A stretch of 24,000 nt of DNA from Anaerolineae bacterium (lineage in GTDB: Bacteria; Chloroflexota; Anaerolineae; Caldilineales; Caldilineaceae), in assembly GCA_030432295.1 (NCBI GenBank), contig JAUIHI010000004.1, positions 185,706 through 209,705 on the forward strand, given 5' to 3'. The first letter of the stretch is position 1. Each line of letters opens with the position of its first letter. A model generated the notes under the pieces. It was given only the letters and a program-made list of their open reading frames with translations. It searched no databases and was not told where the DNA came from. Below, in pieces: positions 1,452 to 24,000 of the stretch. The position numbers were made by a program, and so were the translations under genes.

Positions 1452-2591
1452 CTAGGGCTGCTGGGATTGGGTCTGATCGCCGCCTCTGCCATCCGTTGGA
1501 GCGCCGCTGGCTCCAGCCCCCGGAAGATTCCCCCCGCCGGGGAAGCCACCGCCCTGGAAGAGGGTCGTGACATCTGCGATTATTTTGTCTCCGGCCTGTA
1601 GCTCTGGCGACTCCACAACCACCAGTTCTCCCTGGGCCTCACCTTTCGTTACAGTGACCCGTGTGGGCTGGTCATCCCGGACCACAAAGAGCATTGCGTT
1701 GCCGTTGCGCTCCTGCACAGCCGTGGCGGGGACAAGCCACCCCGTGCCGGATGGGTCTACACCAGAAGCGGCGCTGGCCGGTGCGTCGCCGGTGGAAAGC
1801 ACCAGCACGGGCGTGCCACCCGCAATCTCTTCGCCCACCTGCACATCCACAGAGAGCACCCTACCGCTGACCGGTGCGGCTATCTGCGTGGCTGCCAGAT
1901 CGGCCGCAGCGGTTTCCAGGGTTGCCCTGGCATCCGTCACCCGATCATTGGCAACGGGCAGGCTGGCCTCATTCTTCACCGGGTCAGCGTTCAATGTGTC
2001 CAGGTCTTCCTGGGCCGCGGCCAGTTCGGCCAGCGCCTCTTCGATTGTCGCCTCCAGGGCAGCGCCGTCCAGGGTCAGGAGCAGATCGCCGGGGGCCACG
2101 GCGTCGCCGACAGCCACTTCAATTGTCTGGATTGTACCCGCCAGCGGAAGGAGAATCGGCTGTTGGTCCACACTGGCAGTCGCGCCCGTTGCTGTCTCGC
2201 CCGCTCCCCCGCTGCTGGCCGGGAGGATTTCTACAAGCTGGTCTTCGCTGATCTCAAAAGCAGGGATGTTGCCCGTCCGGGCGGGGGCATTAGCGGTGGG
2301 TGATGCATTGCCGTCTGCCGGAGCCGCGCTGGTGTCCGCCGGGGCTGTCTCGGCATCTGAGACGGCGGCATCTGTGGTAGTTTGCGCGGCAGTCCCCCCA
2401 TTCCCAGCCTGGGCGCGAACGGCCTGGAATGCTTGGGCCGATGGGGCAGTTGTGCTGCTTGCAGTCGCTGGCAGCAGAGTGTCCAATCCCAATTGGGCAG
2501 CCAAATCGGGCTGGGAGCCGACATAAAAGCCGATACCCAGCAGGCCAACGGCCACGACGAGACTTATCACCACCTGTAAAACTGTTTTCAT
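1452..2591 (-). CDS. HlyD-family membrane-fusion / efflux adaptor protein with a long Ala/Thr/Pro low-complexity linker
   Basis: N-terminal TM helix ([23 protein letters not shown]). An A/T/P-rich spacer of about 110 aa follows. Then comes a lipoyl-like motif ([27 protein letters not shown] ... [29 protein letters not shown]) around a coiled coil, and a Gly-rich tail. The track ORF begins at GTG 2603. ATG at 2591 (MKTVLQ) sits behind GAGGAA and is the likelier start. Confidence 0.8.
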
Positions 2592-3117
2592 TGCATTCCT
2601 CACGCGCTGAACCGGTTAATTGCGACAGGTACAGTATATGTGCCGATTGTGTAGAAATTCTGGAGGTGGCGATAAGAAATAGTTGAGATCACACACAAAG
2701 GGGAAACAGAGCGATTCCACTCATTTGTCTACTGCAAAAAGCCAATTGAGCCACTGATAAATGCTGATGGACACTGATACAAACGGCTCTCGCGTGAGGC
2801 GCTCTTGGAGATTAAGAAATTAATCCAGCAATGCGAGGCTCCCCGCTGGTCCGTGACCAGCGGCGTGACGCGGCAACTGTTACACCTCTCGTTGGGCCGC
2901 CGGGTCACGGACCCGGCTGGAGCGGCGCAACACCGCAACAGTTCCCCGATCATTTATTGAATCTCCAACTGCGCCTGGTATGTTGACATATATTGTTTCA
3001 CCCCTCTCTTTTTGTGGGCAGTGAGGGTGTGCGGATGTGCAGAGAAGCGCGGAATTGTGTAGGATATAGACAGTATGCGCTTGCCCTCGCCCATCTGCCA
3101 CTTCAAAGGAGAGACCC

Positions 3118-4482
3118 GTGCCCCAAACCCAATCCAATCGACCGAATGTGATTGTCTTCTTCACCGACCAGCAGCGCTGGGACAGTACCGGCGTCCACGG
3201 CAATCCCCTGGACTTGACGCCCAACTTCGACCGCATGGCCCGCCAGGGAACCCATCTGCACACGACCGTCACCTGCCAGCCCGTCTGCGGACCGGCCCGT
3301 TCCTGTCTGCAAACCGGGATGTATGCCACCAACACTGGCTCCTGGCGCAACGGCATCCCCCTGCGCCAGGATTTGCAAACGATGGCCCATTTCTTCGCGG
3401 CAGGCGGCTACGACACCGGCTATATCGGCAAGTGGCATCTGGCCGACAACCAGTACGAGGGCGCTGTGCCCCCGGAGCAGCGGGGCGGCTACGACTACTG
3501 GCTGGCCTCCAATCTGCTCGAATTCACCTCCGATGCCTACGATATGGTGATGTATGACAACGACCAGCAGCGGGTGAAACTGCCCGGCTATCGGGTGGAT
3601 GCGCAGACCGACGCAGTGATCCGCTATATCGACAGCCACCAGGAAAACCCCTTCTTTCTCTTCATCTCCTATATCGAACCCCACCACCAGAACCATCTGG
3701 ACGACTACCCGCCGCCCGACGGCTACCGGGAGCGCTATGCGGGCCGCTGGACGCCGCCGGATTTGGCCGCGCTGGGCGGTTCCAGCCAGCAACATTTGGG
3801 CGGCTATTGGGGAATGATCAAGCGGCTGGACGAGGCATTGGGCCGGATGACCGACAGCCTGAAAAGTCTGGGGATGCTGGACAACACCGTCATCCTCTAC
3901 ACGACGGATCACGGCAGCCACTTCAAAACCCGCAACAGTGAGTACAAACGCTCCTGTCACGAGGCGTCTGTGCGTCTGCCCACGGCCATCACTGGCCCAG
4001 GCTTCACCGGCGGTGGCGAAATTCGGGAGATGATCAGTCTGGTCGATCTGCCCCCCACACTCCTGGACGCGGCGGGGCTGCCCATTCCGGAGCAGATGGA
4101 GGGGCGCTCGGTGCTGCCACTGGTCAATCGGCAGGCGGTGGACTGGCCGGAAGAGGCTTTTATCCAAATCAGCGAATCGCAGGTGGGGCGGGCCGTGCGC
4201 ACAAAGCGCTGGAAATACGGGGTCACCGCGCCGGACAAGGGGGGCAGCCAGCACTCCGGCTCGGACGAATATGTGGAGCAGTATCTCTACGATCTGGAAT
4301 TCGACCCTTACGAACTAACCAATCTAATCGGCTGGGAGAGCCACCGCCAGGCCAGCGATGTACTGAAGGCGCGGCTGATCCGCCGGATGGTGGAGGCGGG
4401 GGAAGCTGCGCCGGTCATCCACAACGCGCCCTCTATCCCCAAAGGCCAGCGCAAGGTGAGCGAAGCGGAGGCGTATTCCTAA
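3118..4482 (+). CDS. Cys-type sulfatase (arylsulfatase family), no signal peptide
   Basis: N-terminal PNVIVFFTDQQRWD metal-binding motif. Formylglycine signature C-x-P-x-R is present as VCGPARSCLQTG, with Cys codon tgc at 3286-3288. Also GYIGKWHL and LYTTDHG motifs. GTG start is preceded by AAAGGAGAG. No hydrophobic leader. Confidence 0.9.
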   Translation: MPQTQSNRPNVIVFFTDQQRWDSTGVHGNPLDLTPNFDRMARQGTHLHTTVTCQPVCGPARSCLQTGMYATNTGSWRNGIPLRQDLQTMAHFFAAGGYDTGYIGKWHLADNQYEGAVPPEQRGGYDYWLASNLLEFTSDAYDMVMYDNDQQRVKLPGYRVDAQTDAVIRYIDSHQENPFFLFISYIEPHHQNHLDDYPPPDGYRERYAGRWTPPDLAALGGSSQQHLGGYWGMIKRLDEALGRMTDSLKSLGMLDNTVILYTTDHGSHFKTRNSEYKRSCHEASVRLPTAITGPGFTGGGEIREMISLVDLPPTLLDAAGLPIPEQMEGRSVLPLVNRQAVDWPEEAFIQISESQVGRAVRTKRWKYGVTAPDKGGSQHSGSDEYVEQYLYDLEFDPYELTNLIGWESHRQASDVLKARLIRRMVEAGEAAPVIHNAPSIPKGQRKVSEAEAYS

Positions 4483-4483
4483 A

Positions 4484-4849
4484 ATGGAGCTAACCCCTGC
4501 TTTTGTGGTGATCAATCTGGCCCTGCTCTTCTACACAATCGGTGTGTGGGCCGAACGGCTGGCAGGCCGGCTGAAAGGCTGGCATCTGGCCTTTTTCTGG
4601 CTGGGAATCGTCTGCGACACCTGGGGAACCGGCGCGATGTTCGAGATGGCCGGCGGCATGACCTTCGACATCCACGGAGTGAGCGGTCTGCTTGCGATTC
4701 TGCTGATGTTTGTCCACGCGGCCTGGGCGTCCTGGGTGTTGTGGAAAAAGGACGAACGGCTGATTGTCAGCTTCCATCGCTTCAGCGTAGCCGTCTGGCT
4801 GATCTGGCTGATTCCCTACTTCAGCCCGGTCTTCTTTGGGATGGGCTGA
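4484..4849 (+). CDS. small integral membrane protein (about 4 TM helices), function unknown
   Basis: 121 aa with four hydrophobic segments: VVINLALLFYTIGVW, LAFFWLGIVCDTWGTG, GLLAILLMFVHAAWASWVLW and VAVWLIWLIPYFSPVFF. The ATG begins 1 nt after the sulfatase TAA (4480-4482), implying co-translation. Confidence 0.7.
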   Translation: MELTPAFVVINLALLFYTIGVWAERLAGRLKGWHLAFFWLGIVCDTWGTGAMFEMAGGMTFDIHGVSGLLAILLMFVHAAWASWVLWKKDERLIVSFHRFSVAVWLIWLIPYFSPVFFGMG

Positions 4850-4929
4850 AACGCTCCATTTCGTTTATACTGTGTGGCGTTTCGCCGGGTCAAGCCCGTC
4901 AATTTACCAAGAAGGTGGTGTAGTCAAGG

Positions 4930-7446
4930 ATGTATGCAGTTCGTCATGTGAGGTGGGTTATTCTATGCATCGTCTTTCTGCTGGGAAGCAGGAATTTGGC
5001 TGGTGCCGTTCCGGTGGGTGGCGAAGCCGACGAGTGGGATGACCGCTTCGGCTTTCCATCTATCGAGTATGGCGCTGTGCGCGCCATCACCGGGGATGGC
5101 GAAAATCTTTATGTGGGGGGCAACTTCACCAGCGCGGGGATTCTGCCCGCCAACAATGTGGCCCGCTGGGATGGCCGCCGCTGGCACCCGTTGGGCACAG
5201 GCATCAACGGTTATGTCTATGCCCTGGCGATCTTCGACAGCAAACTCTATGCAGGCGGTGATTTTACCCAGGCCGGAAGCGTCGAGGTCAACGGTCTCGC
5301 GGTCTGGGATGGCCTAGGCTGGTCAGCCGTGGGATATGGGGCGGGGGCCATGCAGGGCGCATACAAAGGCGTTGTGCGCGCCCTGGCCGTAGCCGACGAC
5401 GCCCTCTACATTGGCGGCGACTTCACCTCCTTCAACGACCTGTCCACCCTGGACATTGTGCGCTGGGACGGACGCAAGCTGACTTCTCTGGGCGATGGCC
5501 TGGGGGATGTGGATTACAACGGCACGATGGATGCCTCCGGCTATGGGAGCATCTACGCTCTGGCTGTCGGGCCGGATGGCACTCTCTATGCCAGCGGCGA
5601 TTTTACCTCTGCGGGCAATCAGCAACCGCTGTTGGTCAACAGTATAGCCCGCTGGGACGGTCGCCGCTGGGAAGCGCTAGGCAGCGGTGTCGAGAAGTCG
5701 TATGGCAAAGGCGAAGTGCGTGCCCTGGCCGTGGACGAAGAGGGCGCGCTATATGCGGGCGGCCAGTTCGCGAAGGCGGGCGGTGAGATAGCCACTTCCA
5801 TTGCCCAGTGGGATGGGAAAGGCTGGCAGCCTGTGGGCCGGGGCGTGGGTATCGATTCGGCCTACAGCTATGTGAGCAGCCTGGCGGTGGTGGACGACGC
5901 CCTCTATGCCGGTGGGGGGATGGCAAGCATTGGGGGCAAAAAAGTGGCGGGGTTGGCCGTCTGGCAGAGGCAGAGATGGACAGGCGTGGGCGACGGGCTG
6001 CGGGATAGCTACGACGGCGTGCTGGCCCTGCACCCGGACGGCGCGGGCGGCCTCTATGCGGGCGGGTCATTTACGGGGACAGACGAACTCTTCAGCCCCA
6101 ATCTGGCCCACTGGACTGGTGACGAGTGGGAAGCGCTGGGGCAGGGACTGGGCTACGGCTCGACCAGTGGCCGGGTGGAAGCGCTGGGGCAGGGATTAGG
6201 CCACGGCTCGACCAGTGGCCGGGTGGAAGCGCTGGGGCAGGGATTAGGCCACGGCTCGACCAGTGGCCGGGTGGAAGCGCTGGTTGTGGATGCCGATGGG
6301 CTGGTCTATGCTGGCGGCAGCTTTGACAGCGCCGCGGGCAAACCTGTACAGAATATCGCGGTCTGGGATGGCCGCCAGTGGGACGCATTGGATGAGGGTG
6401 TCAACGGATCGGTCCTTGCCCTGGCCGCGTACGGCTCCAAAATCTATGTGGGCGGATCCTTCACCAAAGCCGGGGGCACAGGGGCCAGGTACATCGCCCA
6501 ATACGACAGAGTCACCGGGCGCTGGAGTAGCCTGGAGAGCGGCGTCAACGGTTATGTGCGCGCCCTGGCTGTGACGGCAGATGGCACGCTCTATGTGGCC
6601 GGGGATTTCACCGCAGCGGGTGCGTCCACTGCCAGTTACGTAGGCCAGTGGGATGGCAAGAATTGGGCTGCCCTCGGCAAAGGCATCGAACCCAACGGCA
6701 GCGTGCGCGCCCTGGCCTGGGATGGGCGCAATCTCTTTTTGGGCGGTTCTTTCAGCACAGTTGAAGAGGGCCACGAGCAGGTGACGGTCAACGGGCTGCT
6801 GATCTGGGACAGCCAGACCGACGAACGCTACTCTCTCAGCCGGGGCGACAACGTGGGCGTGACCCGGCTGGGCACTTTCGCTGAATTCAGTGGAGAAGTC
6901 TATGCCCTGGCCGTGACGGAGAGCGCTCTGTATGTGGGGGGTGTCTTTGACAGCACAGGCGGTGTGGCCGCCCGAGGCGTGGCAACCTTTGACTTTGACG
7001 AGGGCTGGCAGGCATTGGGCGAGAGTGTGAGCAGCACCGACACGCCCTATGTGTACAGCCTGGCCGTGTCGCCAGATGGCCTCTTTGCCGGTGGCGAGTT
7101 CACCGCGGCGGGGAGAGCACAGACATCTTCCCTGGCCCGCTGGGATGGAGAACGGAAGCAGTGGGAAGGGCTGGGCAACGGATTAAGCCCAGGCGCAAGT
7201 GTCAGGGCACTGGCAGTTTTCGGCGACTCTCTCTATGTGGGTGGGCAATTCGTCTCGGCCGGGACTTCCCCCGCATCCGCCTTTGCCCGCTGGGGGCCAC
7301 CTGTGCAGGTGCAACTAACCCAATCCCAGGTTCTGGGCCGCTATGCCATGCCAACACCCACGCCCACCCCCTGTGCTATCCGTCCGGTGACAGGCGGCGG
7401 TGTGGGTGGTCAAGCCGTTCCCTGTGGGCTACCCTCCCGGCGCTAG
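4930..7446 (+). CDS. secreted beta-propeller repeat protein (about 13-14 blades)
   Basis: Sec-type leader MYAVRHVRWVILCIVFLLGSRNLAGA. It contains 13-14 copies of a blade of about 55 aa with pattern (I/V)A(R/Q/V)WDGxxWxxLGxGxxGxVxALAVxxxxLYVGGxFTxAGG. The C-terminal tail is PTPTPTP followed by a Gly-rich stretch. Confidence 0.85.
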   Translation: MYAVRHVRWVILCIVFLLGSRNLAGAVPVGGEADEWDDRFGFPSIEYGAVRAITGDGENLYVGGNFTSAGILPANNVARWDGRRWHPLGTGINGYVYALAIFDSKLYAGGDFTQAGSVEVNGLAVWDGLGWSAVGYGAGAMQGAYKGVVRALAVADDALYIGGDFTSFNDLSTLDIVRWDGRKLTSLGDGLGDVDYNGTMDASGYGSIYALAVGPDGTLYASGDFTSAGNQQPLLVNSIARWDGRRWEALGSGVEKSYGKGEVRALAVDEEGALYAGGQFAKAGGEIATSIAQWDGKGWQPVGRGVGIDSAYSYVSSLAVVDDALYAGGGMASIGGKKVAGLAVWQRQRWTGVGDGLRDSYDGVLALHPDGAGGLYAGGSFTGTDELFSPNLAHWTGDEWEALGQGLGYGSTSGRVEALGQGLGHGSTSGRVEALGQGLGHGSTSGRVEALVVDADGLVYAGGSFDSAAGKPVQNIAVWDGRQWDALDEGVNGSVLALAAYGSKIYVGGSFTKAGGTGARYIAQYDRVTGRWSSLESGVNGYVRALAVTADGTLYVAGDFTAAGASTASYVGQWDGKNWAALGKGIEPNGSVRALAWDGRNLFLGGSFSTVEEGHEQVTVNGLLIWDSQTDERYSLSRGDNVGVTRLGTFAEFSGEVYALAVTESALYVGGVFDSTGGVAARGVATFDFDEGWQALGESVSSTDTPYVYSLAVSPDGLFAGGEFTAAGRAQTSSLARWDGERKQWEGLGNGLSPGASVRALAVFGDSLYVGGQFVSAGTSPASAFARWGPPVQVQLTQSQVLGRYAMPTPTPTPCAIRPVTGGGVGGQAVPCGLPSRR
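6130..6283 (+). repeat. in-frame 48-bp tandem repeat, 3.2 copies, inside the propeller gene
   Basis: Units lie at 6130-6177, 6178-6225 and 6226-6273, with a partial fourth at 6274-6283. Units 2 and 3 are identical over 48/48 nt. Unit 1 differs at 3 nt (CTG to TTA, synonymous; TAC to CAC, Y to H). The encoded peptide is EALGQGLG(Y/H)GSTSGRV, three times. Confidence 0.95.
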
Positions 7447-8047: not shown

Positions 8048-10480
8048 CTATGCCCGTGCGTGTTGCGACTCGACCGGCGGCTGGTAGACGACCGCCAGAT
8101 GGGGCGTCTCCAGCCGCTGGTGCTCCTGTGCTTTGGAGGTCAGGCAGCTTTCCAGCACGCCGCTGACCAGCAGTGTGCGCTCGGCGGGGAAAGGCGCAAC
8201 GCCTGTTGCAAACATCTCCTCTATTTTGCCCACCAGACAGGCCGAGTAGGTGACATTCGGGCCGGGGGTGAGGAAGAATTGGGTGGAGACCGGCTTTTCC
8301 TCACCGGCCAGGCGGGCGGCAAAGCAGAAATCCTTGAGCGCTCCGTTGAGCATCAGCAGTGTGGCCTGCAGGCCGTCGTTGTATTCGATGCAGTAGGCCG
8401 CAGGGTTTTCCACCAGTTTGTATAGCTCACCGCTGCCCAGCAAATCCTGGGTGCGCCCGTCTTCATCGCTCAGTCCCCGGGGCGAATCGCTACGCGAAAG
8501 CGCTGCTTCCAGCAGTTCCATCGACCAGCGCCCCTCCCGTCCCGCCTGCCAGACCGCCTCACCTTCCAGCAGTTGGACAGCCCGCACGCCGCTCTCCCCC
8601 CCGGCCCGCCGCTCCAGCATACACTGCATAGCTTCCAGCGCGTGGTAGTCCATCGGGTCCGAGCCGCCCACGCCTACCATCAGCGCCTCGTCAACTACGC
8701 AGCCCAGAGGCAATTCCACATCGGGCAGCCGCCAGGTGACAGGCAGGGAAGAACCAGCCAGCAATGGGAATCCGAGCCGGTGAGCGTCATCCACCATCTC
8801 CGCGGCCTTTGTGTAACTATACGAAAGATGCTTGTCGTTGTAGATCGGCACAACCCGGCCATCCGCCTCAAAGACTTCCACGCACTGCACGAAGAAGTCG
8901 TGGCGGGGGTAGAGTATCTGGCCCAGATCGTTGCGGGGATAGTCGCCGTGCTCCACTACCAGCATCACCCCATCCACGGCCAGCTTCTCGCCACCACAGC
9001 GCAGGGCCTCGGCAATCGTCGGGTAGATGTCAAAGCCGAACTCCCGTGCCCGGTCGATGCTCTGATCCCCCACCGGCTGCTGGTCCACGTAGAGGGAGAC
9101 GATCTCCACGTTGGGCCGATGCCAGCGCCCATCCACGGGATAGCCGGTCAGCCAGCGGTCGCAGAAGTGCTGGGCGTGGGAGCGCAGGCGGTAGATGGAG
9201 GCGATGACCGCAATGCGCAGGGGCGGCGCGGGCGGGGGTGGCAATTGGGGGCGGGATGATTGGGGCGTGGGCAACAGATGGACCCGATCCTCCCGCCAGA
9301 AGGTGGACTCGGCTGTGGGCTGGTAGGCGATGGCCAGATGGGGCGTCTCGATGCGAGTCTGCTCTGCGTGCAGACTCTCGATGCCCGCGGCATTGAGGCC
9401 AGTGGTGAGCAGTGTGCGTTCCAGCGGATAGGTCGGCTCGCCGGTCAAAAACATCTGCTCCACCGCGTGGACCTGGGGCGAGAAGAAGTTGGCCAAAGTT
9501 GAGCGGGCTGGCGGCATAGGCAGATACATTTGGGTGGAGAAGGGTTCGCTCTGTCCGTCCAGATGCGCGGCAAAATTGAAGTCCTGCACCAGCCCGCTGA
9601 ACAGAATCATCGTGGAACGGAGGCCGTCGTTGTGCTCGTAGTGGTAGGCAACCGGGTCTTTGACCAATTCCCGCATCTCATCGCCGGTGGGGAAATTGTT
9701 GTTGAATCCGGGTCGGCTCGGTGTCAGTGTGTGGCTGCGGCTGAGCGCGGCTTCGAAAAGTTCCCGTGACCAGACGCCTGCGTGATGGGCCTCCCAGAAG
9801 GCGTCGCCCCGGTAGGACTGCACCCAACGCACGCCGGTCTCGCCCCCGACCCGGCGCTCCACCATACATTGCAGGGTTTCCAGGGCGTGAAAGTCGTAGC
9901 TGTCCACCCCGCCGTAGCCGATGACCAGCGCTTCCCGCACAGACGCGCCCAGGGGCATATCGACGGAAGGGGTGCGCCAGGTCACAGGCAGGGAGGAACC
10001 GGCCATAAAGGCAAAGCCCATCGACTGCGCGGTCTCGGCCATCTCTTTGGCCCATTCCCATTTCCAGGAAAGGTGCTTGTCGTTGAAGATGGGGGCCGTG
10101 CGTCCGGTCATGCGATAGACGGCCACAATCTCTTTGAAGAGTTCGTAGCGGGGGTAGAGATGCTGGCCCTTTTCGTTGTAGGGGTATTCGCCGTGCTCGC
10201 CGATGAGTAGTACACCGTCCACAGCCAGGCTCTCCGTGCCCAGAGTCAGGGCATCTGCCACAGTTGGGTAGAGTTGCATGGACGGGAAGCGGCTGCTGCG
10301 CTCCTGGGCTAAATCGTTCTCGCCTATCTGATCCACATAGGCAGAGACCAAATCCATAGGTGGGTGGTGGTGGCGGTTGTCCCAGCCATAGCCTTCCAGA
10401 AAGCGGTCGATGAAGTGCTGGGCGTGGGCGTATTTGCGGACAACTGTGCAGATGATGGCGATTTTCGGTCGTTGCGGCAT
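8048..10480 (-). CDS. uncharacterised two-module protein: tandem duplication of an about 400-aa Gfo/Idh/MocA-like (glycine-motif-less) unit
   Basis: The two halves align end to end at about 45% identity by eye. Half 1 reads KIAIICTVVRKYAHAQHFIDRFLEGY...LAVDGVLLIGEHGEYP...PIFNDKHLSWKW...MAGSSLPVTWR...YDFHALETLQCMVERRVGGETGVRWVQ...ETPHLAIAYQP. Half 2 reads RIAVIASIYRLRSHAQHFCDRWLTGY...LAVDGVMLVVEHGDYP...PIYNDKHLSYSY...LAGSSLPVTWR...MDYHALEAMQCMLERRAGGESGVRAVQ...ETPHLAVVYQP. The halves are joined by a Pro-rich linker, PQLPPPPAPP, at about 9216-9260. The start is moved to ATG 10480 (MPQRPKIAII), preceded by CAGGAGtctccc. The upstream 65 codons of the track ORF look non-coding. Confidence 0.8.
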   Translation of the reverse strand: MPQRPKIAIICTVVRKYAHAQHFIDRFLEGYGWDNRHHHPPMDLVSAYVDQIGENDLAQERSSRFPSMQLYPTVADALTLGTESLAVDGVLLIGEHGEYPYNEKGQHLYPRYELFKEIVAVYRMTGRTAPIFNDKHLSWKWEWAKEMAETAQSMGFAFMAGSSLPVTWRTPSVDMPLGASVREALVIGYGGVDSYDFHALETLQCMVERRVGGETGVRWVQSYRGDAFWEAHHAGVWSRELFEAALSRSHTLTPSRPGFNNNFPTGDEMRELVKDPVAYHYEHNDGLRSTMILFSGLVQDFNFAAHLDGQSEPFSTQMYLPMPPARSTLANFFSPQVHAVEQMFLTGEPTYPLERTLLTTGLNAAGIESLHAEQTRIETPHLAIAYQPTAESTFWREDRVHLLPTPQSSRPQLPPPPAPPLRIAVIASIYRLRSHAQHFCDRWLTGYPVDGRWHRPNVEIVSLYVDQQPVGDQSIDRAREFGFDIYPTIAEALRCGGEKLAVDGVMLVVEHGDYPRNDLGQILYPRHDFFVQCVEVFEADGRVVPIYNDKHLSYSYTKAAEMVDDAHRLGFPLLAGSSLPVTWRLPDVELPLGCVVDEALMVGVGGSDPMDYHALEAMQCMLERRAGGESGVRAVQLLEGEAVWQAGREGRWSMELLEAALSRSDSPRGLSDEDGRTQDLLGSGELYKLVENPAAYCIEYNDGLQATLLMLNGALKDFCFAARLAGEEKPVSTQFFLTPGPNVTYSACLVGKIEEMFATGVAPFPAERTLLVSGVLESCLTSKAQEHQRLETPHLAVVYQPPVESQHARA

Positions 10481-10684
10481 GGGAGACTCCTGGGGGATGG
10501 ATGGCTTTGCGCTAAAAAATGGACACTGATGGCGCGGAAAGGAATGATTGACGCTGATAATCTCTGCGTGATTTGCGTCCCTTCTATCGGGCATACTGGC
10601 TGCGTCGCAGAGAAGTATAGCCAATTGAGGCTGCGAAGGAAAGCCGGGCTTTCGCCAGAATTGGCCGCAGCCCAATTCCTCCGG

Positions 10685-17983: not shown

Positions 17984-18231
17984 AATAAAAAAACCTCCGT
18001 CCCCAATACAGGACGAAGGAAATTCGTGGTGCCACCTGAGTTCGCAGCCGTCCGCATTGAACGGTCTGCCTCAATCTGTCGATAACGGGACAACCCGCCC
18101 GGCCATTGCCTGCCGGTAGCTCGGAAAGTGCTGACACGTCCGGTCTCTGTTGCCTCGCACCACCCGGCAACTCTCTGAAAGAAGACCCTGCCGCGCCCTG
18201 GCTTTCGTCATCGCCATTGCTCTGTTCGTAT
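17984..18231 (-). promoter_or_regulatory. T-box riboswitch leader (Ser, AGC specifier) with intrinsic terminator, controlling serS
   Basis: Read on the minus strand. K-turn/GA motif GGCGAUGACGAAAG pairs with CUUUCCGAGC. AG bulge and distal loop read AGAGAGuugccGGGUGGUGCGAggcaacAGAGA. The specifier loop reads GUC-AGC-A, with AGC at 18132-18130 followed by the conserved purine. The T-box core reads CAGG-UGGCACC-ACGAA (18025-18040 region), a 7-nt bulge whose UGGC can pair with a GCCA acceptor end. The antiterminator helix is ACGAA/UUCGU. It overlaps the terminator CCUUCGUCC-loop-GGACGGAGG (18019-17994), which is followed by U7 (17993-17987). Confidence 0.85.
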
Positions 18232-18237
18232 TGGCAA

Positions 18238-18266
18238 ATCCTAGCACAGGGCGGGAGGGGTGTCAA
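18238..18266 (-). promoter_or_regulatory. sigma70-type promoter driving the T-box/serS transcript
   Basis: Minus strand: TTGACA (18266-18261), a 17-nt spacer, then TAGGAT (18243-18238). It lies 26 nt after the stop of the giant upstream ORF and just 5' of the T-box Stem I. Confidence 0.6.
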
Positions 18267-18291: not shown

Positions 18292-21200
18292 CTATTGGGC
18301 CACCAGCCACAGATTGCGGAATTGGAACTCGTCCTGATCGCTGCCATCTGCAGGAAAAGCCGCACAAATTTTCAGGTGATTGGTTCCGACGCGCAGTGGC
18401 TCGATCACCAACGGCAGGGAGATGCTTTCGCTCCAATAGTTGGGGATGTTTTCCCCCGAACGCAATGCCTGGGGAAGAACAACAGCCACCTGGCGATCGT
18501 TGAGTTCAATCCAATTTTTCTCTTCTGCCCCAAATATCTGCATATGCAAGACCAGACTAGCAGGACGCTTCTTCACCTGAAAGGTGGTGGCCCAGCAAGT
18601 GCCGTAGAGCGAGGCCCAGGCCGACGCGCTGGAGAATTCATCGTTGCCGATGTGAATCTGCTGCTGGTTACAGTAGAGCGCCTGGTCCAGGCCATAGGTC
18701 AGGGAGAGCGCGCGTGCCAAGTTTGCGTGGATGGTATGCAAGTCGAGTTCAGCGTGCCGCCTGGCTAGATTCTCCACACCACATAGGGCTGTCCAAATCG
18801 GCGGTGCATCTGCGGTTGTACTGATGGCAAGCTGGCTGCCGATGTCATAATTGACAACCGCTTTGTCCAAAGCATTGCTTTTGGCGGCAATTTCGGCGGC
18901 GCTGAAGGCAGCATTGCGCTGTTCCGTGAGCGCCTCATTGTCGGCCACCGGTTTATAATAGCGGACCGCTGCTTCATAATCTGACAGAGCAGCCTGGTCG
19001 TCGCCATCTTTTTCAGATTCCCGGGCGCGCAACACATAATACCAGCCCCAACCCCCTTCTTTCAGATAGGTCTGAATCTGGGACGAACCCTCCGTCGCAT
19101 TCAATTCATAGGCTTTGTCGCCGTCGGGGATGGCCACATCCAGTGCCCAACGTGCGCCGGCCTCGTCCCTTTCCAGAAATGCGACCCGGCCCAAGTGAAA
19201 TTTGAACCAGCCCCGATATCGCCAGTAATATCCTTTCTGTTCGAGTTCAGGATGCTCACGCAGTTGTTCTGGCAATTGGTTCTGCATAGCATCGATCAGG
19301 GCAGGGGTGGTGGTGCTGCCACGCACCTGCCAGAGTCTACGCAGGTCTTCGGGCACGGCGCGGAGAAAGCGATACTGTTCGCTATCCGCTTCTGTGCGGC
19401 GAATGCCCTCATTGAACCAGTAGCCCGCCGCGTCGAACTGTTCCAGAATCGTTGCCATCAGGCCGAGTTTGAAGGCGTGATTGGCGTTCTTGGGGTCATT
19501 GGCCGCCGTGAAATCGGGCAGCCGTTGGGCAAATGACGCCAATACCGAGTCGGAAATGACCCCGTTCGTTGCCACCGCCGCGGCCAGCAAATTGTCCGCG
19601 GCGAGTGTCGGATTCGCCTCTTCCACCGCCGCATCCAGCCCCTGGCCGAAGTTGGAACGGGCAGCCTCCACTTCGCCTGCCTTCAACGCAGCCAGGCCCT
19701 TGTCGAAGAAGCCCTGGGCTGTGGCCAGAATTCCGTCCAATTCAACGATCAATCTGGGGTCTGCCACGCCGGGGTTGTCACGGATGTACGCATCCAAAGC
19801 CGCTGCGGCCTGCTGGACCGGTCTGTGACCACCCTCTACCCGGCTCCCCAATTCTGCGCCCAGGGTATAAAGCGTCCTGGCCCGTTCCGGGTCCTGGGGT
19901 AGCGCGATCAAAGCATCGCTAAACACAAATTTTGACAGAAAATGGCGAGTGAACGCGTTGGGCTTATACTCGCCTCTGTCAGTAGGGTCTATGGAAAGTG
20001 CCGACTCCATATCCTCTTTAATCGGTATCAGCCAGTCGGCCAGGGGTGTCTTCCGCCGAAGTTCGTTCCTGTTTACTTCCCAGAGCGCTATACGCAGACG
20101 AGCACGCATATGAAAATAATCCGCCTTATCCGGCACTAAATCAATCGCCTTGTCGTAACTGGCAATGGATTCTTCCAACGTAGCCACGCGGTCCGGGGTA
20201 CAGCGTTTCGACTGCAATAGCCAGAGCAGATTGCCCTCGGTACGATACCAGAAAGCAATTTTGGCGGATGTCTGCCCCTCGACTTGCGAGGCTGTATTCA
20301 GGTACTTGAACGCAGCTTCGTAGTGCTTACACAACTCCGCATCTTCAGTTACGCCGCCCAATTTCCAATGGGCCGAACTGGTCAGGATGAGGGCGGCCAG
20401 GTTGCGCGGCTCCAGAGCCAGCGCCTTTTCTCCCGCCTGGGCTGCATCCTCATATTTGCTCATTCGGTAGTAGACGTTGCCCAGACCGATCCAGGGCTGG
20501 GGGCTGTCAGCCGTGGCCGAAATGGCGGTTTGAAAGAAGTTCAGCGCGCGGTCGTCTTGCTCTTCTCCAAATTTGATCCACCCCAGGGCTGTGCGCGCCA
20601 GCATCTCATCTTCCAGGCTTAGGGCTGTCAAAGTATCTTTGCCCGCTGTCGTCCCCTCCTCACAGGCGGGCAAGTCGGCCACATCCAGCCCCAGCGCTCG
20701 CCGGTAATCGCACTCGGCTTCCGGGGTCCGCTTGGCGGTTTGCAGGGCCAGCCCACGCCACAGATAGAGTTCCGCCCGATCGGGGTTGTCAGCAAGCGCA
20801 CGGCTATACCAGCCGACCGCATCCAATTCTCCGCCGGAAGCAGGCTGTGTGGTCGCATCCGATGGCTGTGCCGATTGTTCCACTCCCTGTGCCGCCGCCA
20901 CCGCCTGGGAAAGCGCGCCGATCTGGGCATAGAGGCGATCCGGGCGACCGCTAACGCCGTCCAGAGATTTGTACAGGGCCAACGCTTGGGGATAGCAGCC
21001 CAGCCGCACCAACAGAGCCGCTTTGTTCTCCACAGCCAGAATCGGGGTCAGACTATCGGGCGCTAGGGTTGTGACCGTACGGGTCAGGGTCCAATCATAG
21101 CTGAACGACCCCGCGGGGCGAGCGGCTATCGCCCTGTCATAGGCGGCCAGCCCGCCTCCGGTGGGGTCATCCGCCGGGGAGGGACAGCCCTGCGGATCGG

Positions 21201-24000
21201 TGGTCTGGGTCTGGGTCTGGTATCTCTCTTGCAGCGAATTGCCCGTTGCCAGGGCGTGGTAGGCAGCGCTCTCTCGCCCCAGCACAACGAGCATCAACAC
21301 GACCACAGCGCAGACGGACAGAGCCACGCCAACGCGCACTACACGGGGATAGAGGAGCACGCTGCTCTCCCTGGCCTGCCAGAGGAAAAAGGCCGCGGCC
21401 AACCCCAAAGCGAGGGTAAGGACGGGCAGGACAAGATTGACGCCGGTGATCAGCGGGCGGAAACGGGCCAACAACTGGACGACCAGCAGCAGCCCAGCCA
21501 ATGCGAGCACCCACCAAGCCCGTTGGCTGGTGGGGTTCTGGAAACGGGCCAGGCGCAGAGGGCGCAGCACAAACCAGTAGAGGGGAGCGGGCAAGAGGGT
21601 CAGGAAGAGATAGGGGTACAGATCAATCGGACGATAAGCGCTGCCGACGATAAAAAGGTTGAGGAAATCCATCCGCCCCCGGACTGCTATTGCCAGGAGG
21701 ACGAAGATCAACAGCCCGGCCAAATAGAGCCAGAGACTCGTGCTGCGGCCCAGCCAGTAGTCTGCATTCACAAGACGCACGCTGGACGACATACGTGTGC
21801 GCAGATGGGCATTGAGACTTGCATACCAGTTTGTGTTGCCATCCACCATAGCCGGGGTGTGGGGTGTGAGCAGCGTAAAAGTGGAGAAGTTGGGGATGGG
21901 TAGAGAGAGAACGCCCAGATTGGCCGAAACCAGCCCGTCAATCTCGGCCAGGGGCAACACCCGCTGGGAACTGCCCGATCCGAAGCGAAGTTCCTGATCG
22001 TCAATCTCGATTTCGAACGTGCTGACATAGCGCTCAATCAGCCAGAGCGGGGTGACGGCAATGAGCAGCAGCCCCAACAGCAGGGAAAAGAGCAGGTACA
22101 AGCCCAGGGCAATCAGACCACCCCACACCCACGCCCGGCCAGAGGAAACATCAACCGTCATCTGGTGGACGGCACTGCGCAGAGCGACGTCATCAAGACG
22201 AGGAAGGGCAAAACCACTGCCGCCATACTTTACATCAATCGTAAAGCCGATGGCTGGCTTCAATTCATAGACTGGATCGATCTGGATGACCAGCAGCGGC
22301 ACGGCAAAAAGAAGGAAGGCCAACAACACAAAAAGGAGGATTTGGGAGAGGCGCCAGAGCGGGTGGCAATAGGCTACGGAATAGTGACGGCGGGGCAGGC
22401 TGGAAATGATTGTATCGATCCGGGGTTGGATGTTCGCGGGCGTCTCCGCCTGGGCGCGCAGACTTGCCAGCCGCTCCACCAGCCCGGTCGCGGCCTCCCA
22501 CTCCTCCCGCCGCTGATACTCGGCCACACTGTCGGCGAACTGCTGAAGGGACTCTTCGCGCTGGCCCAAAGTCCAATAGGCATCGGCCAGCAGAGAACGG
22601 GTGCGCACCGCCAGATCGAAATCTTCAAAATGCACGAGTACGGGAAGGGCGCGGTTGATCTCATCCACCGCCTGCTCCGGCCGCTTGCGCAACAGTTCGG
22701 CCCTGGCCCTGGCTACACGCAACACTGCCCGCGGGTAGATTCCTAGCTCCGCGCCGGCCCCGGCTTCCAACAGATCAATCGTCTCGATAGCTGCTTCGGC
22801 ATCCCCCAAAGTCAGGTAGACCTCCGCCAGCTTGCGGCTCAACGAAAGCCGTTCGGCCCTCTGTTCGCTGCCAGTCAGAGTCTGGTCGGCCTGGCGATAG
22901 AAGCGAACGCCCAGGGCGTAGAGCCGGGTGACCATCCAGTCCATGCCATACAAACTCTCCCCCAGGGCCGTGCGCCAGACCCGCTGCCCCAGGGCAAAGG
23001 AGAGGTAGAGAACCCGAGGTAGGGAGAGCAAAAAAAGAATCGTCCCACGCAGCCGCTGCCACCAATGGGGCGCGTCGGGCAAGTGCTGGGCAGGGGTGCG
23101 CAGAGAATCGGCAAAGGCCACGTGGGCATCGCCCAGGGCTGTCAGCAGCGCGCCCCGCTCTGCCGCCATGTCGGCCACGGCGAAGGAGCCTTTGCCCGCC
23201 TGCTCAAGCCGGTGCAGCCCCCCGTTGAATTCGTTGATGGCGTCCACATATTGCTCGTTGTGGAGCAGGCCATAGCCGCGCAGGCGGGCCACAAAGGGAA
23301 AGATGCCCGGCGGGAGATCCTGGGCGAAACGTAGCCCGCGCAACTCCTCGCCGCGCGCATCCCAGCGACCGCGCAACTGATCCAATTGAATACTGAGCGC
23401 GGTGAGCAACTGCCCCAGGCCGGACGAGGACCCGTCGCCGCCGTTGCCAGGGGATGGGGGCAGCAGGGCCAGCAATGCATGGGCTTCTCTGGCCGCGGAC
23501 AAGAGCCGATCCCCCGCGGCAAAAAAACGGTTTTCCACATAGACGCGGAAGTAGGCGATCAGATCCCCGACGCCCGCCTCGAAATCCACAAAGAGGCGAT
23601 GGTAGACGAGTACCTGTTGCTGGGCAAAGCTATTGGGGTCGGGGTTGGCCTGCCAGAAGGTCAGGCTGTGGGTATGGGCCGCACGAAAGCTGTCAGGCTC
23701 CCGGGCAATCCAATCTTCCAGAATTACCTGCCGCTGGCGAGCGGAAACCGCAATGCCCGGCTGGGTGTGGTTGACGGGGTCAACAGTCTGACTGACAAAA
23801 GGATAGGCTTCCAACCTTTCAATCAGCCCCTCTTCCCGTCTATCTGTGCGATTGCGCAGGGCCGCAAAGAGGGGTACAGGACACCAGAGCGGGAGCGCGG
23901 CCAAACGGAAGGCCTCTGCCATCAAGGGGTGTACGTCCTGCAAAATACCCTTGACCAGAACTTCCACCTGGTGTTGGTAGGAATACGCGGCTTCGCTCAT
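18292..24000 (-). CDS. giant (1,902 aa) TPR-like / 7-TM / TPR-like membrane protein of unknown function
   Basis: Uninterrupted 5,709-nt ORF. Residues 1-540 are a helical, TPR-like region. Residues about 551-908 contain seven hydrophobic helices, for example LSQILLFVLLAFLLFAVPLLVIQ, WGGLIALGLYLLFSLLLGLLLIAV, LWLYLAGLLIFVLLAIAV, AWWVLALAGLLLVVQLLA, LVLPVLTLALGLAAAFFLW and VGVALSVCAVVVLMLVVLG. Residues about 960-1750 are repeated TPR-like helices. Residues about 1760-1902 form a non-helical C-terminal module. The ATG is the last three bases of the window, so the true 5' end cannot be confirmed. Confidence 0.85.
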   Translation of the reverse strand: MSEAAYSYQHQVEVLVKGILQDVHPLMAEAFRLAALPLWCPVPLFAALRNRTDRREEGLIERLEAYPFVSQTVDPVNHTQPGIAVSARQRQVILEDWIAREPDSFRAAHTHSLTFWQANPDPNSFAQQQVLVYHRLFVDFEAGVGDLIAYFRVYVENRFFAAGDRLLSAAREAHALLALLPPSPGNGGDGSSSGLGQLLTALSIQLDQLRGRWDARGEELRGLRFAQDLPPGIFPFVARLRGYGLLHNEQYVDAINEFNGGLHRLEQAGKGSFAVADMAAERGALLTALGDAHVAFADSLRTPAQHLPDAPHWWQRLRGTILFLLSLPRVLYLSFALGQRVWRTALGESLYGMDWMVTRLYALGVRFYRQADQTLTGSEQRAERLSLSRKLAEVYLTLGDAEAAIETIDLLEAGAGAELGIYPRAVLRVARARAELLRKRPEQAVDEINRALPVLVHFEDFDLAVRTRSLLADAYWTLGQREESLQQFADSVAEYQRREEWEAATGLVERLASLRAQAETPANIQPRIDTIISSLPRRHYSVAYCHPLWRLSQILLFVLLAFLLFAVPLLVIQIDPVYELKPAIGFTIDVKYGGSGFALPRLDDVALRSAVHQMTVDVSSGRAWVWGGLIALGLYLLFSLLLGLLLIAVTPLWLIERYVSTFEIEIDDQELRFGSGSSQRVLPLAEIDGLVSANLGVLSLPIPNFSTFTLLTPHTPAMVDGNTNWYASLNAHLRTRMSSSVRLVNADYWLGRSTSLWLYLAGLLIFVLLAIAVRGRMDFLNLFIVGSAYRPIDLYPYLFLTLLPAPLYWFVLRPLRLARFQNPTSQRAWWVLALAGLLLVVQLLARFRPLITGVNLVLPVLTLALGLAAAFFLWQARESSVLLYPRVVRVGVALSVCAVVVLMLVVLGRESAAYHALATGNSLQERYQTQTQTTDPQGCPSPADDPTGGGLAAYDRAIAARPAGSFSYDWTLTRTVTTLAPDSLTPILAVENKAALLVRLGCYPQALALYKSLDGVSGRPDRLYAQIGALSQAVAAAQGVEQSAQPSDATTQPASGGELDAVGWYSRALADNPDRAELYLWRGLALQTAKRTPEAECDYRRALGLDVADLPACEEGTTAGKDTLTALSLEDEMLARTALGWIKFGEEQDDRALNFFQTAISATADSPQPWIGLGNVYYRMSKYEDAAQAGEKALALEPRNLAALILTSSAHWKLGGVTEDAELCKHYEAAFKYLNTASQVEGQTSAKIAFWYRTEGNLLWLLQSKRCTPDRVATLEESIASYDKAIDLVPDKADYFHMRARLRIALWEVNRNELRRKTPLADWLIPIKEDMESALSIDPTDRGEYKPNAFTRHFLSKFVFSDALIALPQDPERARTLYTLGAELGSRVEGGHRPVQQAAAALDAYIRDNPGVADPRLIVELDGILATAQGFFDKGLAALKAGEVEAARSNFGQGLDAAVEEANPTLAADNLLAAAVATNGVISDSVLASFAQRLPDFTAANDPKNANHAFKLGLMATILEQFDAAGYWFNEGIRRTEADSEQYRFLRAVPEDLRRLWQVRGSTTTPALIDAMQNQLPEQLREHPELEQKGYYWRYRGWFKFHLGRVAFLERDEAGARWALDVAIPDGDKAYELNATEGSSQIQTYLKEGGWGWYYVLRARESEKDGDDQAALSDYEAAVRYYKPVADNEALTEQRNAAFSAAEIAAKSNALDKAVVNYDIGSQLAISTTADAPPIWTALCGVENLARRHAELDLHTIHANLARALSLTYGLDQALYCNQQQIHIGNDEFSSASAWASLYGTCWATTFQVKKRPASLVLHMQIFGAEEKNWIELNDRQVAVVLPQALRSGENIPNYWSESISLPLVIEPLRVGTNHLKICAAFPADGSDQDEFQFRNLWLVAQ

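Follow-up and report, generated by a model that had tools for sequence, protein, structure and literature searches.

The 1,902-aa open reading frame (ORF) that occupies positions 18292-24000 of the minus strand in the 24,000-nucleotide stretch of Anaerolineae DNA analyzed here (the window) probably encodes the receptor subunit of a conflict or cell-death system that is NLR-like (STAND NTPase), consists of three genes and belongs to filamentous Chloroflexota. NLR/STAND receptors are defined as intracellular sensors. Unlike the known NLR-type receptors, the ORF product probably reads signals from outside the cell. Based on a single continuous ORF and on comparison with its homologues, the whole protein is proposed to be the sensor or scaffold subunit of a split STAND system, which would signal to a protease through EAD adaptors.

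The earlier note on this DNA, made from the letters alone, had described a trans-envelope scaffold or sensor, rather than an enzyme, that could not be assigned to a characterized family. Pfam and NCBIfam searches over the whole ORF returned only TPR (repeat/scaffold) matches and no enzyme family. A sensor role fits these results, because the ORF sits in the sensor position of the STAND order and carries no enzyme domain by Pfam or NCBIfam. The sensor half of the earlier description is thus retained, while "receptor arm", as part of a system that signals through NTPase and protease, describes the protein better than "scaffold".

Integrity of the reading frame

ORF calling places the ATG at 24000, the last base of the window, where the earlier note had also put it, and the stop at 18292. 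The start position raised the question of whether the frame continues past 24000. On a longer public contig a separate NTPase gene lies upstream, and the identical protein with the identical start is called on an independent Logan contig and recorded by NCBI (297,539 bp contig). Homologue comparison shows that the ORF and 5/5 full-length homologues share a common N-terminus, and therefore the ORF is not cut off by the window edge; truncation at that point is ruled out because the homologues all start at the same Met.

A chimeric or frameshifted ORF had also been raised at the outset. The reading frame would be an artefact if an in-frame stop had turned a formerly fused gene into a pseudogene, or if the assembly were chimeric, and such an origin could account for the stop codon of the NTPase gene (TAG) lying in one frame with the ORF start codon, 9 nt away, for the existence of a fused relative (P0060), and for the 137 C-terminal residues without a homologue. 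This reading is already largely refuted, and the probability left to it is minute. The split is kept in 22/22 loci, where spacing and frame vary, down to an overlap of 4 nt in L002 and L006, which argues against a pseudogene formed by an in-frame stop; two independent sources give the same sequence; and the codon usage of the C-terminal tip is gene-like in frame (0.33 in the tip vs 0.37 +/- 0.07 elsewhere in the gene).

The NTPase and protease genes

On the longer contig, the ORF is preceded at a distance of 9 nt by the gene for a NACHT-like P-loop NTPase of 416 aa, just past 24000, where a partner or NTPase gene had been anticipated. The gene order on the ORF strand is EAD1-trypsin-like protease, NTPase, ORF. 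In Pfam the NTPase scores 28.9 bits with NACHT (cut-off 26.7) and 26.3 with NPHP3_N (cut-off 24.8); its Walker A motif is ADEGMGKS and its Walker B motif, LLLDSFQD, is of the NACHT-like D-[GS]-x-[DE] type. The protease gene, two positions upstream of the ORF, matches EAD1 (E 6.8e-11) and Trypsin_2 (E 1e-18). The concept of EAD-coupled effectors comes from Kaur et al. 2020 (PMC7159879).

An EAD7 death-like adaptor sits between Walker A and Walker B of the NTPase. Pfam makes no EAD7 call in the NTPase of this genome; the insert, taken from the family alignment, matches stand-alone EAD7 domains in hhalign (98.8%, E 5e-17), and Pfam EAD7 is found inside the NTPases of L002 (E 9e-8) and L004 (E 7e-21). 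The EAD1 domain of the protease is related to the NTPase insert, though at no more than 72% in hhalign (E 3e-5).

The linkage of the two genes is conserved in the family, which comprises about 100-180 sequence clusters. Each of the 22 loci with upstream DNA, every one from Chloroflexota, has an NTPase gene directly upstream of the ORF homologue; the gap can be as small as -4 to 9 nt, and the other flanking genes vary from locus to locus. The NTPase and ORF modules are divided over two genes in every one of these loci, unlike the one-polypeptide STAND proteins. The same modules also occur fused, with N1 and N2 (the two N-terminal regions described below) following the NTPase. The single chain P0060 opens with 290 residues that share 26% identity with the upstream NTPase (E 7e-25) and continues as N1-N2-7TM-C. 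In the P0114 group, single chains of ~1,315 aa run AAA_16/NPHP3_N NTPase-N1-N2-7TM and stop soon after the transmembrane (TM) core; an EAD insert and a protease domain are both absent. P0146 is arranged as CHAT-NTPase-N1-N2-7TM. Of 21 distinct loci, 4 contain the EAD1-trypsin gene, with the same arrangement in L002, L006 and L013, and a CHAT protease gene lies upstream in L022; the effector is therefore not constant.

These data make it very improbable that the ORF encodes a housekeeping protein of the envelope (a TPR scaffold, or a membrane enzyme that is GT-C-like and carries TPRs) to which the NTPase is merely adjacent. TPR-bearing polytopic membrane proteins are, as is generally known, frequent in envelope biogenesis, one face of the membrane core carries four conserved residues (D793, Y795, R848 and H915), and housekeeping genes such as serS are found downstream. 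However, a housekeeping role is hard to reconcile with the invariable and close NTPase pairing, with the NTPase and CHAT fusions, with flanking genes that change between loci, and with the lack of any match to Pfam or NCBIfam enzyme families.

The N-terminal arm, predicted to be cytoplasmic

The first region of the split STAND sensor, N1 (residues 1-300, 23101-24000, minus strand), is modeled as a winged-helix-like unit at about residues 25-85 followed by a helical domain, based on AF2, Foldseek and the fused relatives. The winged-helix-like unit consists of three helices and a beta-hairpin in the AF2 model (H25-35, H42-49, H56-63, E69-72, E82-85). N1 has the highest mean pairwise identity of all regions (46%), and in the fused relatives it comes straight after the NTPase; it is proposed to be the interface with the upstream NTPase.

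N2 (residues 301-545, 22366-23100, minus strand) is a TPR-like arm that is predicted to be cytoplasmic. Pfam gives weak TPR_12/SNAP matches at residues 428-519, AF2 models helical repeats with pLDDT 85-95, and Foldseek finds TPR matches. The AF2 model of residues 1-545 as a whole has a pLDDT of 79.8 and is all-alpha beyond the winged-helix-like unit. Foldseek matched this model to TPR proteins and to one STAND-TPR protein, 6mfv_A, which is the best global match (TMq 0.52 over 524 columns); an N1 profile run against PDB sequences found nothing meaningful. The N-terminal ~540 aa had been called helical and TPR-like, and likened to the helical region that follows the NTPase in STAND proteins. The models agree with the former, and the latter is borne out by the upstream NTPase gene, the fused relatives and the 6mfv_A match.

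At residues 312-337 (22990-23067, minus strand), N2 also contains a helix hairpin that is hydrophobic and conserved, seen in hydropathy and in the alignment. Residues 319-339 were considered as an eighth TM helix and rejected, since AF2 renders them as two short helices (14 and 11 residues) inside the repeat arm, and since the flanking charges of a TM helix here would put the N-terminal winged helix outside the cell.

The seven-TM core and its putative PH-fold insert

Hydropathy peaks occur at residues ~547-580, 618-655, 749-782, 794-816, 825-852, 849-878 and 883-913. All seven are present in the ORF protein, in a 6-sequence alignment and in an 83-sequence alignment, and the AF2 model of the core has seven long helices at the same positions. 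This model was built from the 6-sequence alignment and is of low confidence (pLDDT 59). The seven TM helices that had been predicted from the letters are therefore supported by hydropathy in three data sets and by AF2, and the range found here (21256-22362) is close to the one first given (nt ~21277-22350).

TM1 (~residues 547-575, 22276-22362) is placed by hydropathy, the alignments and AF2, and just before it lies a conserved, predicted cytoplasmic motif, R538-x-Y540...H546-P547. TM2 (~residues 621-652, 22045-22140), with conserved Y635 and G643, is placed by hydropathy, AF2 and the 83-sequence alignment. TM3-TM7 (residues 754-915, 21256-21741; minus strand, like TM1 and TM2) are placed by the same evidence as TM1, and their conserved residues Y789, D793, Y795, R848, Y914 and H915 are predicted to lie at the outer face. 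TM4 holds the conserved residues W809 and P814 and is the weakest segment (hydropathy ~1.6); AF2 renders it as a long helix.

Between TM2 and TM3 lies an insert (residues 653-753, 21742-22044, minus strand) that is predicted to be cytoplasmic and to adopt a PH fold, with conserved S706, G721 and Y726. In the AF2 model it has seven strands and a C-terminal helix (pLDDT 65-77). The leading Foldseek PDB matches are the PH-fold proteins Btk, Rtt106 and SSRP1/Pob3, at weak E-values of ~1e-2 to 1e-1; 3b77, a PH structure from bacteria, ranks 34th in the list, with a poor rmsd. The PH fold is thus supported at low confidence by the structural models. Pfam bPH families gave 0 matches to the window protein at E <= 10, and a profile of TM2 plus the insert found no match among PDB sequences. 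Of 38 family members searched against Pfam, 5 gave a match, one to bPH_6 (E 0.006), two to YcxB, and one each to PH_21 and DUF2244, all of them sub-threshold; YcxB and DUF2244 are families that we take to be PH-related. The suggestion of a bPH-like insert accordingly survives as to the fold and its place behind a TM hairpin, and fails as to membership in a Pfam bPH family.

The C-terminal arm and tip

Following the core is a long TPR-like arm (residues 936-1765, 18706-21195, minus strand), which is identified by Pfam and hhalign and predicted to be extracytoplasmic from the charge bias and from the domains of relatives. Pfam matches to the ORF exceed the cut-off for TPR_11 (43.6 bits), TPR_2 (36.4) and TPR_8 (35.3), and the significant TPRs are confined to residues 1061-1240 (20281-20820, minus strand), the only part of the arm above the Pfam cut-off. 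In hhalign, repeats stand out strongly within block 936-1350 (98%), to which block 1351-1765 is related (83%). The ~800 aa of C-terminal TPR-like repeats described in the earlier note are thus partly verified, by Pfam at residues 1061-1240 and by hhalign as two repeat blocks. The arm is the most variable region of the protein (32% identity, 21% indels), and in this respect the distal arm looks like the sensor end. A Cys pair in the arm, C1224/C1267, is found in 55/65 representatives.

The orphan C-terminal tip (residues 1766-1902, 18295-18705, minus strand), defined by codon usage and homologue searches, corresponds to the distinct module of ~140 aa seen previously; it comprises 137 aa, is coding by its codon usage, and is absent from the homologues. 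Searches with the tip found no match in Pfam (E <= 10), in PDB sequences, or by tblastn and phmmer in all fetched loci and proteins. A word-indexed homologue search with the C-terminal 158 aa also returned nothing, a weak negative because the search missed the protein itself as well. Relatives carry SH3_3, N_BRCA1_IG or PD40 domains at the position of the tip. Read-through into non-coding DNA was rejected as an origin of the tip, because its codon usage is gene-like in frame only.

Membrane topology

The most likely topology, as judged from sequence features, is N-in and C-out, with the C-terminal arm outside the cytoplasm. In the 83-sequence alignment, K+R counts alternate along the protein as 4.7 / 2.1 / 12 / 0.7 / 2.7 / 0.8 / 2.0 / 3.0, with the ~12 in the PH-fold insert. 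A second line of evidence is the relative P0154, in which an LVIVD propeller is inserted in loop 3-4. The third is the SH3b, PD40 and Ig-like tips of relatives, domains found typically, but not exclusively, in extracytoplasmic proteins, and the fourth is the conserved Cys pair. The claim that the two repeat arms lie on opposite faces of the membrane is supported, not proven, by these four indirect lines.

If the weakly hydrophobic TM4 does not span the membrane, the C-terminal arm would be cytoplasmic. The same split STAND system would then have an even number of spans and both arms in the cytoplasm, with the core anchoring the protein in the membrane or sensing the condition of the membrane, and it would detect intracellular or membrane-proximal cues (phage proteins, membrane damage) like other bacterial STAND/Avs proteins. 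Besides the hydropathy of TM4 (1.6), the low confidence of the core model and the near-neutral charge after TM7 (3.0 K+R vs 3.8 D+E) are consistent with such an arrangement, and the characterized bacterial STAND sensors all work in the cytoplasm (general knowledge; PMC13581612). It is nonetheless unlikely: the 83 sequences keep seven segments and an alternating charge bias, TM4 is a long helix in AF2, and the propeller in loop 3-4, the SH3_3, PD40 and Ig-like tips and the Cys pair of the C-terminal arm all argue for an external location.

A model for signalling

The ORF would supply the parts that follow the NTPase in STAND proteins made of one piece, namely the N1 winged-helix/helical module and the N2 TPR arm. 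To these it would add an unusual 7-TM core, whose PH-fold domain would be cytoplasmic, and a long TPR arm with a tip, both variable and most likely outside the cytoplasmic membrane. The sequence data show the gene linkage, the domain content, the fused relatives and the relatedness of the EADs; the topology, and the direction, ligand and outcome of signalling, are inferred. In the proposed signalling pathway, the outer arm or tip would bind a ligand, which could be phage, foreign or neighbor cell-surface material, or cell-wall damage. The resulting change would be relayed via the 7TM/PH core to the cytoplasmic N2-N1 arm, freeing the NTPase for NTP-dependent oligomerization. Clustered EAD7 inserts would then recruit the EAD1-tagged trypsin-like protease, or in relatives a CHAT caspase-like protease or EAD7-tagged proteins, and proximity would activate the protease. 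Proteolytic signalling or cell death would be the outcome.

An improbable alternative is that the 7TM core itself is the effector, with NTPase oligomerization joining the TM bundles into a pore, or an array that disrupts the membrane, so that the cell dies, and the proteases being accessory. The P0114 group, which ends shortly past the TM core and is without EAD insert or protease domain, could be read in this way, and TM effectors are generally known to be common in bacterial abortive infection. However, the core is in the sensor place, C-terminal to the NOD and within the repeat arms, whereas effectors are usually N-terminal; the effector position is held by CHAT or trypsin proteases in P0146, L022 and L001; and the conserved residues cluster at loops and faces, not on a polar pore-lining helix.

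PADLOC-DB 2.0 gave 0 matches to the ORF, a single match to the NTPase (PDC-S20, E 1.4e-3), and weak RT-protease and Avs1b protease matches to the trypsin domain. Since no PADLOC defense model matches the ORF, a role of the receptor system in defense is suggested by analogy only.

Relationship to known systems

The closest counterparts are the EAD-coupled STAND conflict systems (Kaur, Burroughs, Iyer, Aravind 2020, 2021; PMC7159879, PMC8195603), which likewise have a STAND NTPase with TPR, carry EADs on the core component as well as on a protease (trypsin or caspase/CHAT) with its own gene, are linked in operons, and occur in filamentous bacteria. The ORF system differs in that the NOD is split over two genes, EAD7 lies inside the P-loop domain instead of at a terminus, and a 7-TM core with a PH-fold insert breaks the repeat arm. 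No mention of the ORF architecture was found in PMC7159879 or PMC8195603, nor in the wider literature searched.

MalT-type STAND proteins (archaeal STAND-TPR, PDB 6MFV) share the order of NTPase, winged helix and TPR sensor arm. Unlike the ORF system, they are soluble, single-chain, cytoplasmic ligand sensors without TM core, EAD or protease partner, and 6MFV has no sequence-level similarity to the ORF (N1 profile vs PDB). The Avs/bNACHT systems share the tripartite layout of effector, NTPase and repeat sensor; some have protease effectors, and the trypsin domain here has a weak Avs1b match. However, they sense phage proteins in the cytoplasm, their TM segments are reported to be effectors and not part of the sensor arm, and no PADLOC model matches the ORF at all or the NTPase convincingly. 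YdbS/YdbT-type bPH proteins share a two-TM hairpin followed by a cytoplasmic PH-fold domain (predicted here); the ORF lacks a Pfam bPH_2 match, and its unit sits in a 7-TM core inside a STAND sensor. Some STAND/ternary-system sensors have been computationally predicted to have TM regions with a periplasmic sensing domain (Dore et al. 2024, PMC10907252). These DGR-diversified sensors share that predicted placement with the ORF, but have C-type lectin sensing domains and other TM segments, without a 7TM+PH core or TPR arms on two faces.

A conserved 7-TM/PH core with a large, variable, probably external TPR arm at the sensor position would extend NLR-type signalling across the membrane. The fullest version of this reading is a true transmembrane NLR, in which an extracytoplasmic TPR-plus-tip arm governs a NOD/STAND switch through a previously undescribed 7TM+PH transducer to detect extracellular threats or neighbors; this is tentative, somewhat short of an even chance. 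If it is true, filamentous Chloroflexota sense extracellular threats or neighbors and trigger death-fold/protease signalling, and one bacterial system merges roles that animals split between surface receptors and cytosolic NLR/apoptosome machines. The confinement of the family to filamentous Chloroflexota ties it to the proposed link between multicellularity and apoptosis-like conflict systems. The three genes, with clear, mutable motifs, are an object for asking how a NOD switch is controlled across a membrane. Two structural oddities are the division of the NOD module between P-loop core and winged helix, and the death-like adaptor within the P-loop domain. The 7TM+PH core also marks a database gap, as it matched no entry in Pfam, NCBIfam, PADLOC or PDB.

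Downstream of the ORF

An Rfam search of the window gave no match. About 270 nt past the ORF stop, at 17994-18019 (minus strand), is a terminator-like hairpin with a T-run that is no more than a consensus match, where shuffled sequence yields 0.6 such matches; it is possibly the end of the transcription unit. The downstream neighbors of the ORF are housekeeping genes such as serS.

An intact ORF and its NTPase partner

On the minus strand, the ORF opens with an ATG at 24000, the last base of the window, and continues unbroken to its stop codon at 18292, encoding 1,902 aa. The same protein with the same start is called on an independent Logan contig and in the NCBI record (a contig of 297,539 bp), and a word-indexed search gave five full-length homologues (30-47% identity, 1,626-1,794 aa), all five of which share its N-terminus. 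The identical start and the shared N-terminus rule out truncation by the window edge; the long single ORF that the earlier note described is borne out by window, independent contig and homologues alike. The chance that the ORF is an artefact or a pseudogene is very small. Pfam and NCBIfam find TPR repeats only, above cut-off at residues 1061-1240 and weakly at 428-519.

The earlier note had suggested that a partner gene, perhaps for an NTPase, might lie past the window edge. A longer contig with the ORF (L001) extends upstream of window position 24000, and there a gene for a 416-aa NTPase ends 9 nt before the ORF. The product has NACHT and NPHP3_N matches just over the Pfam cut-offs, a Walker A motif (ADEGMGKS) and a NACHT-like Walker B motif (LLLDSFQD). 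Between the two motifs lies an insert of about 100 residues, on which Pfam calls EAD7, an effector-associated death-like adaptor domain, in orthologous NTPases (E 9e-8 in locus L002, E 7e-21 in L004). The family alignment of the insert also matches stand-alone EAD7 domains (hhalign 98.8%, E 5e-17). The next gene upstream codes for EAD1 joined to a trypsin-like protease. The EAD1 of such proteases and the NTPase insert are distant relatives (72%, E 3e-5), in agreement with the likely kinship of EAD1 and EAD7 according to Kaur et al. (PMC7159879).

At L001 7340-7354 the NTPase TAG is followed by GCG AAA CCG (the 9 nt) and the ORF's ATG, all in frame, so that one read-through at the TAG would recreate a fused protein like the relative P0060. 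Because this arrangement is found in this genome and not in the other loci, it is most likely a coincidence.

Conservation of the gene pair and fused relatives

GTDB species genomes were scanned with the TM-core alignment, a single motif that samples the close family only. The scan gave 18 loci, all in Chloroflexota (Ardenticatenaceae, Promineifilaceae, Leptofilum, Litorilinea and Anaerolineaceae), to which the contigs of the first homologues were added. An NTPase gene lies directly upstream on the same strand in 22/22 loci with upstream DNA (21 distinct), so the pairing is kept among homologues; at one extreme the two genes overlap by 4 nt, at the other they are about 370 nt apart. The split between NTPase and ORF is ancestral to the family. 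An EAD1-trypsin gene is upstream in L001, L002, L006 and L013; in L022 a CHAT protease gene takes this place, and the NTPase there has no EAD insert. An HMM of the TM core, searched exhaustively, recovered 177 representative clusters at E <= 1e-3, of which 97 pass E <= 1e-30; most of the clusters are laid out like the window protein.

In at least nine relatives, the chain itself includes an NTPase of the upstream-gene type. The first 290 residues of P0060 (2,186 aa) match the upstream NTPase (26% identity, E 7e-25). With N1 and N2 denoting residues 1-300 and 301-545 of the ORF, proteins of about 1,315 aa form a group that reads NTPase-N1-N2-7TM and ends in a short tail, and P0146 reads CHAT-NTPase-N1-N2-7TM. 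In another group, of about 2,000 aa, an N-terminal AAA_16/nSTAND3-like NTPase is joined to a divergent copy of the core. Gene linkage, domain identities and fusions are direct observations. The fusions show the ORF and the upstream NTPase to be one functional STAND unit, with the protease in effector position and the 7TM core on the sensor side. The existence of a fused group without protease or EAD motivates the idea that the core is itself a pore-forming effector, which the sensor-side placement makes unlikely. A housekeeping role in the envelope is opposed by the conserved NTPase linkage and the fusions, and is highly improbable.

Several observations concern neighbouring genes. In L017 (19807-20583), L019 (20084-20866), L020 (19780-20712) and L021 (20497-21248), proteins of about 250-310 aa with a C-terminal EAD7-type domain are encoded some 6 kb beyond the 3' end of the large gene; their N-terminal 190 aa or so have no assignment. 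Pfam finds EAD7 in the L017, L019 and L020 proteins, and the L021 protein matched the NTPase-insert profile only. These are candidate alternative effectors, for which the EAD7 insert in the NTPase could be the partner. In five Ardenticatenaceae/Leptofilum-type loci, the NTPase gene is immediately preceded by a 248-aa ORF in the same orientation (L009 6172-6918, L012 6184-6930, L017 5518-6264, L019 5518-6264, L023 5746-6492). The L009 and L017 copies are rhomboid intramembrane proteases by Pfam, and the other three are assumed to be so from their equal size and position; the adjacency may have a functional meaning or may simply be synteny. In one Anaerolinea MAG (L014), the orthologue is broken within the PH insert into two ORFs (2165-4240 and 4265-7411), for which a frameshift, pseudogenization or misassembly could be the cause.

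Architecture and topology

AlphaFold2 (AF2) models residues 1-545 well (pLDDT 79.8, pTM 0.76). Residues 25-85 form three helices and a beta-hairpin in a winged-helix-like arrangement, followed by helical repeats. Most Foldseek matches are generic TPR proteins, and the best global superposition (TMq 0.52, 524/545 columns) is on 6mfv_A, a crystallized archaeal STAND protein whose sensor is made of TPRs. The STAND-like, TPR-like character proposed for this region therefore holds. Residues 312-337 (window 22990-23067, minus strand) are a conserved hydrophobic helix hairpin with invariant S326-L327-P328; distant fused relatives also have it, about 230 aa ahead of TM1. In the AF2 model it forms two short helices that belong to the cytoplasmic arm, and it is not counted as a membrane span; the hairpin may dock in-plane on the membrane.

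Seven hydropathy peaks (about 547-580, 618-655, 749-782, 794-816, 825-852, 849-878 and 883-913) recur in the ORF itself, in a 6-sequence alignment and in an 83-sequence alignment of representatives. The AF2 model of 530-935, of low confidence (6 sequences, pLDDT 59, pTM 0.49), places seven long helices at the same positions, in accord with the seven TM helices first proposed. Its best-predicted stretch (pLDDT 65-77) is the 100-residue TM2-TM3 insert, with seven strands and a C-terminal helix. The leading PDB matches by Foldseek are PH folds (Btk PH, Rtt106, SSRP1/Pob3/Spt16), all weak (E 1e-2 to 1e-1). Pfam bPH models do not match the window protein, and 38 family members gave scattered sub-threshold matches only, to bPH_6, YcxB, PH_21 and DUF2244. 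Of the bPH-like insert originally suggested, the position after a TM hairpin and, at low confidence, a PH-like fold are supported, but membership of a bPH family is not demonstrable.

Counts of K+R per segment alternate along the chain in the 83 sequences: 4.7 before TM1, 2.1 in loop 1-2, 12 in the PH insert, 0.7 in loop 3-4, 2.7 in 4-5, 0.8 in 5-6, 2.0 in 6-7 and 3.0 after TM7. The relative P0154 has an LVIVD beta-propeller, a repeat typical of cell-surface proteins, inserted after TM3. The C-terminal tips of relatives contain SH3_3, PD40 and N_BRCA1_IG domains, types that are mostly extracytoplasmic. In the C arm, C1224 and C1267 (window 20200-20331, minus strand) are both present in 55/65 representatives of an otherwise Cys-poor protein, and a disulfide between them would fit. 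Because these four indirect lines agree, an N-in/C-out topology is favored, with the C arm probably outside, as expected if the two repeat arms occupy opposite membrane faces. Against C-out are the weak hydrophobicity of TM4 and the low confidence of the core model; that both arms are cytoplasmic, with the core a membrane anchor or membrane-state sensor, is a minority possibility of some weight.

Block 936-1350 of the C arm has strong internal repeats (hhalign 98%) and is related to block 1351-1765 (83%). The last 137 residues, the tip, are missing in every homologue; no relatives were found by Pfam (E <= 10), among PDB sequences, or by tblastn and phmmer against the fetched loci and proteins. 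The last 158 residues had no match in a word-indexed protein search either, but this is a weak negative, since the search also missed the parent protein, P0001. Codon usage in the tip is normal, in the reading frame only.

A proposed sensing mechanism

In a model drawn from STAND/NLR proteins and from the EAD concept (PMC7159879, PMC8195603), a ligand would be bound by the variable distal arm or the tip, and the change would pass via the 7TM/PH core to the cytoplasmic TPR-winged-helix arm. Nucleotide exchange and oligomerization of the NTPase would follow, and the clustered EAD7 inserts would recruit EAD-tagged proteases, activated by proximity. Ligand, direction of signalling and outcome are all inferred by analogy. 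The conservation pattern fits the proposal: N1 is the most conserved region (46% identity), and the distal C arm the most variable (32% identity, 21% indels).

Kaur et al. described the class of STAND/EAD conflict systems into which this one falls. It differs from the others in that the NTPase switch module (NOD) is split between P-loop core and winged helix, the EAD is inserted inside the P-loop domain, and the sensor arm is interrupted by a conserved 7TM+PH module. Periplasmic sensing has a precedent in the TM-bearing sensors predicted in some DGR-linked STAND or ternary systems (Doré et al. 2024, PMC10907252), but their domains differ. PADLOC has no model for the system, and a literature search of incomplete coverage found no description of the family. 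The interpretation in the earlier note, NTPase partner included, is supported.

Other features of the window

The ORF is separated from serS by 414 nt, which contain, on the minus strand, a sigma-70-like promoter match (18238-18266) and a terminator-like hairpin with a T-run (17994-18019); Rfam gave no match in this spacer, neither a T-box nor any other family. An 875-aa ORF at 8048-10675 (minus strand) has no Pfam match at E <= 1e-5. At 4930-7446 (plus strand), an 838-aa protein carries Rax2/DUF5122/Reg_prop beta-propeller repeats.
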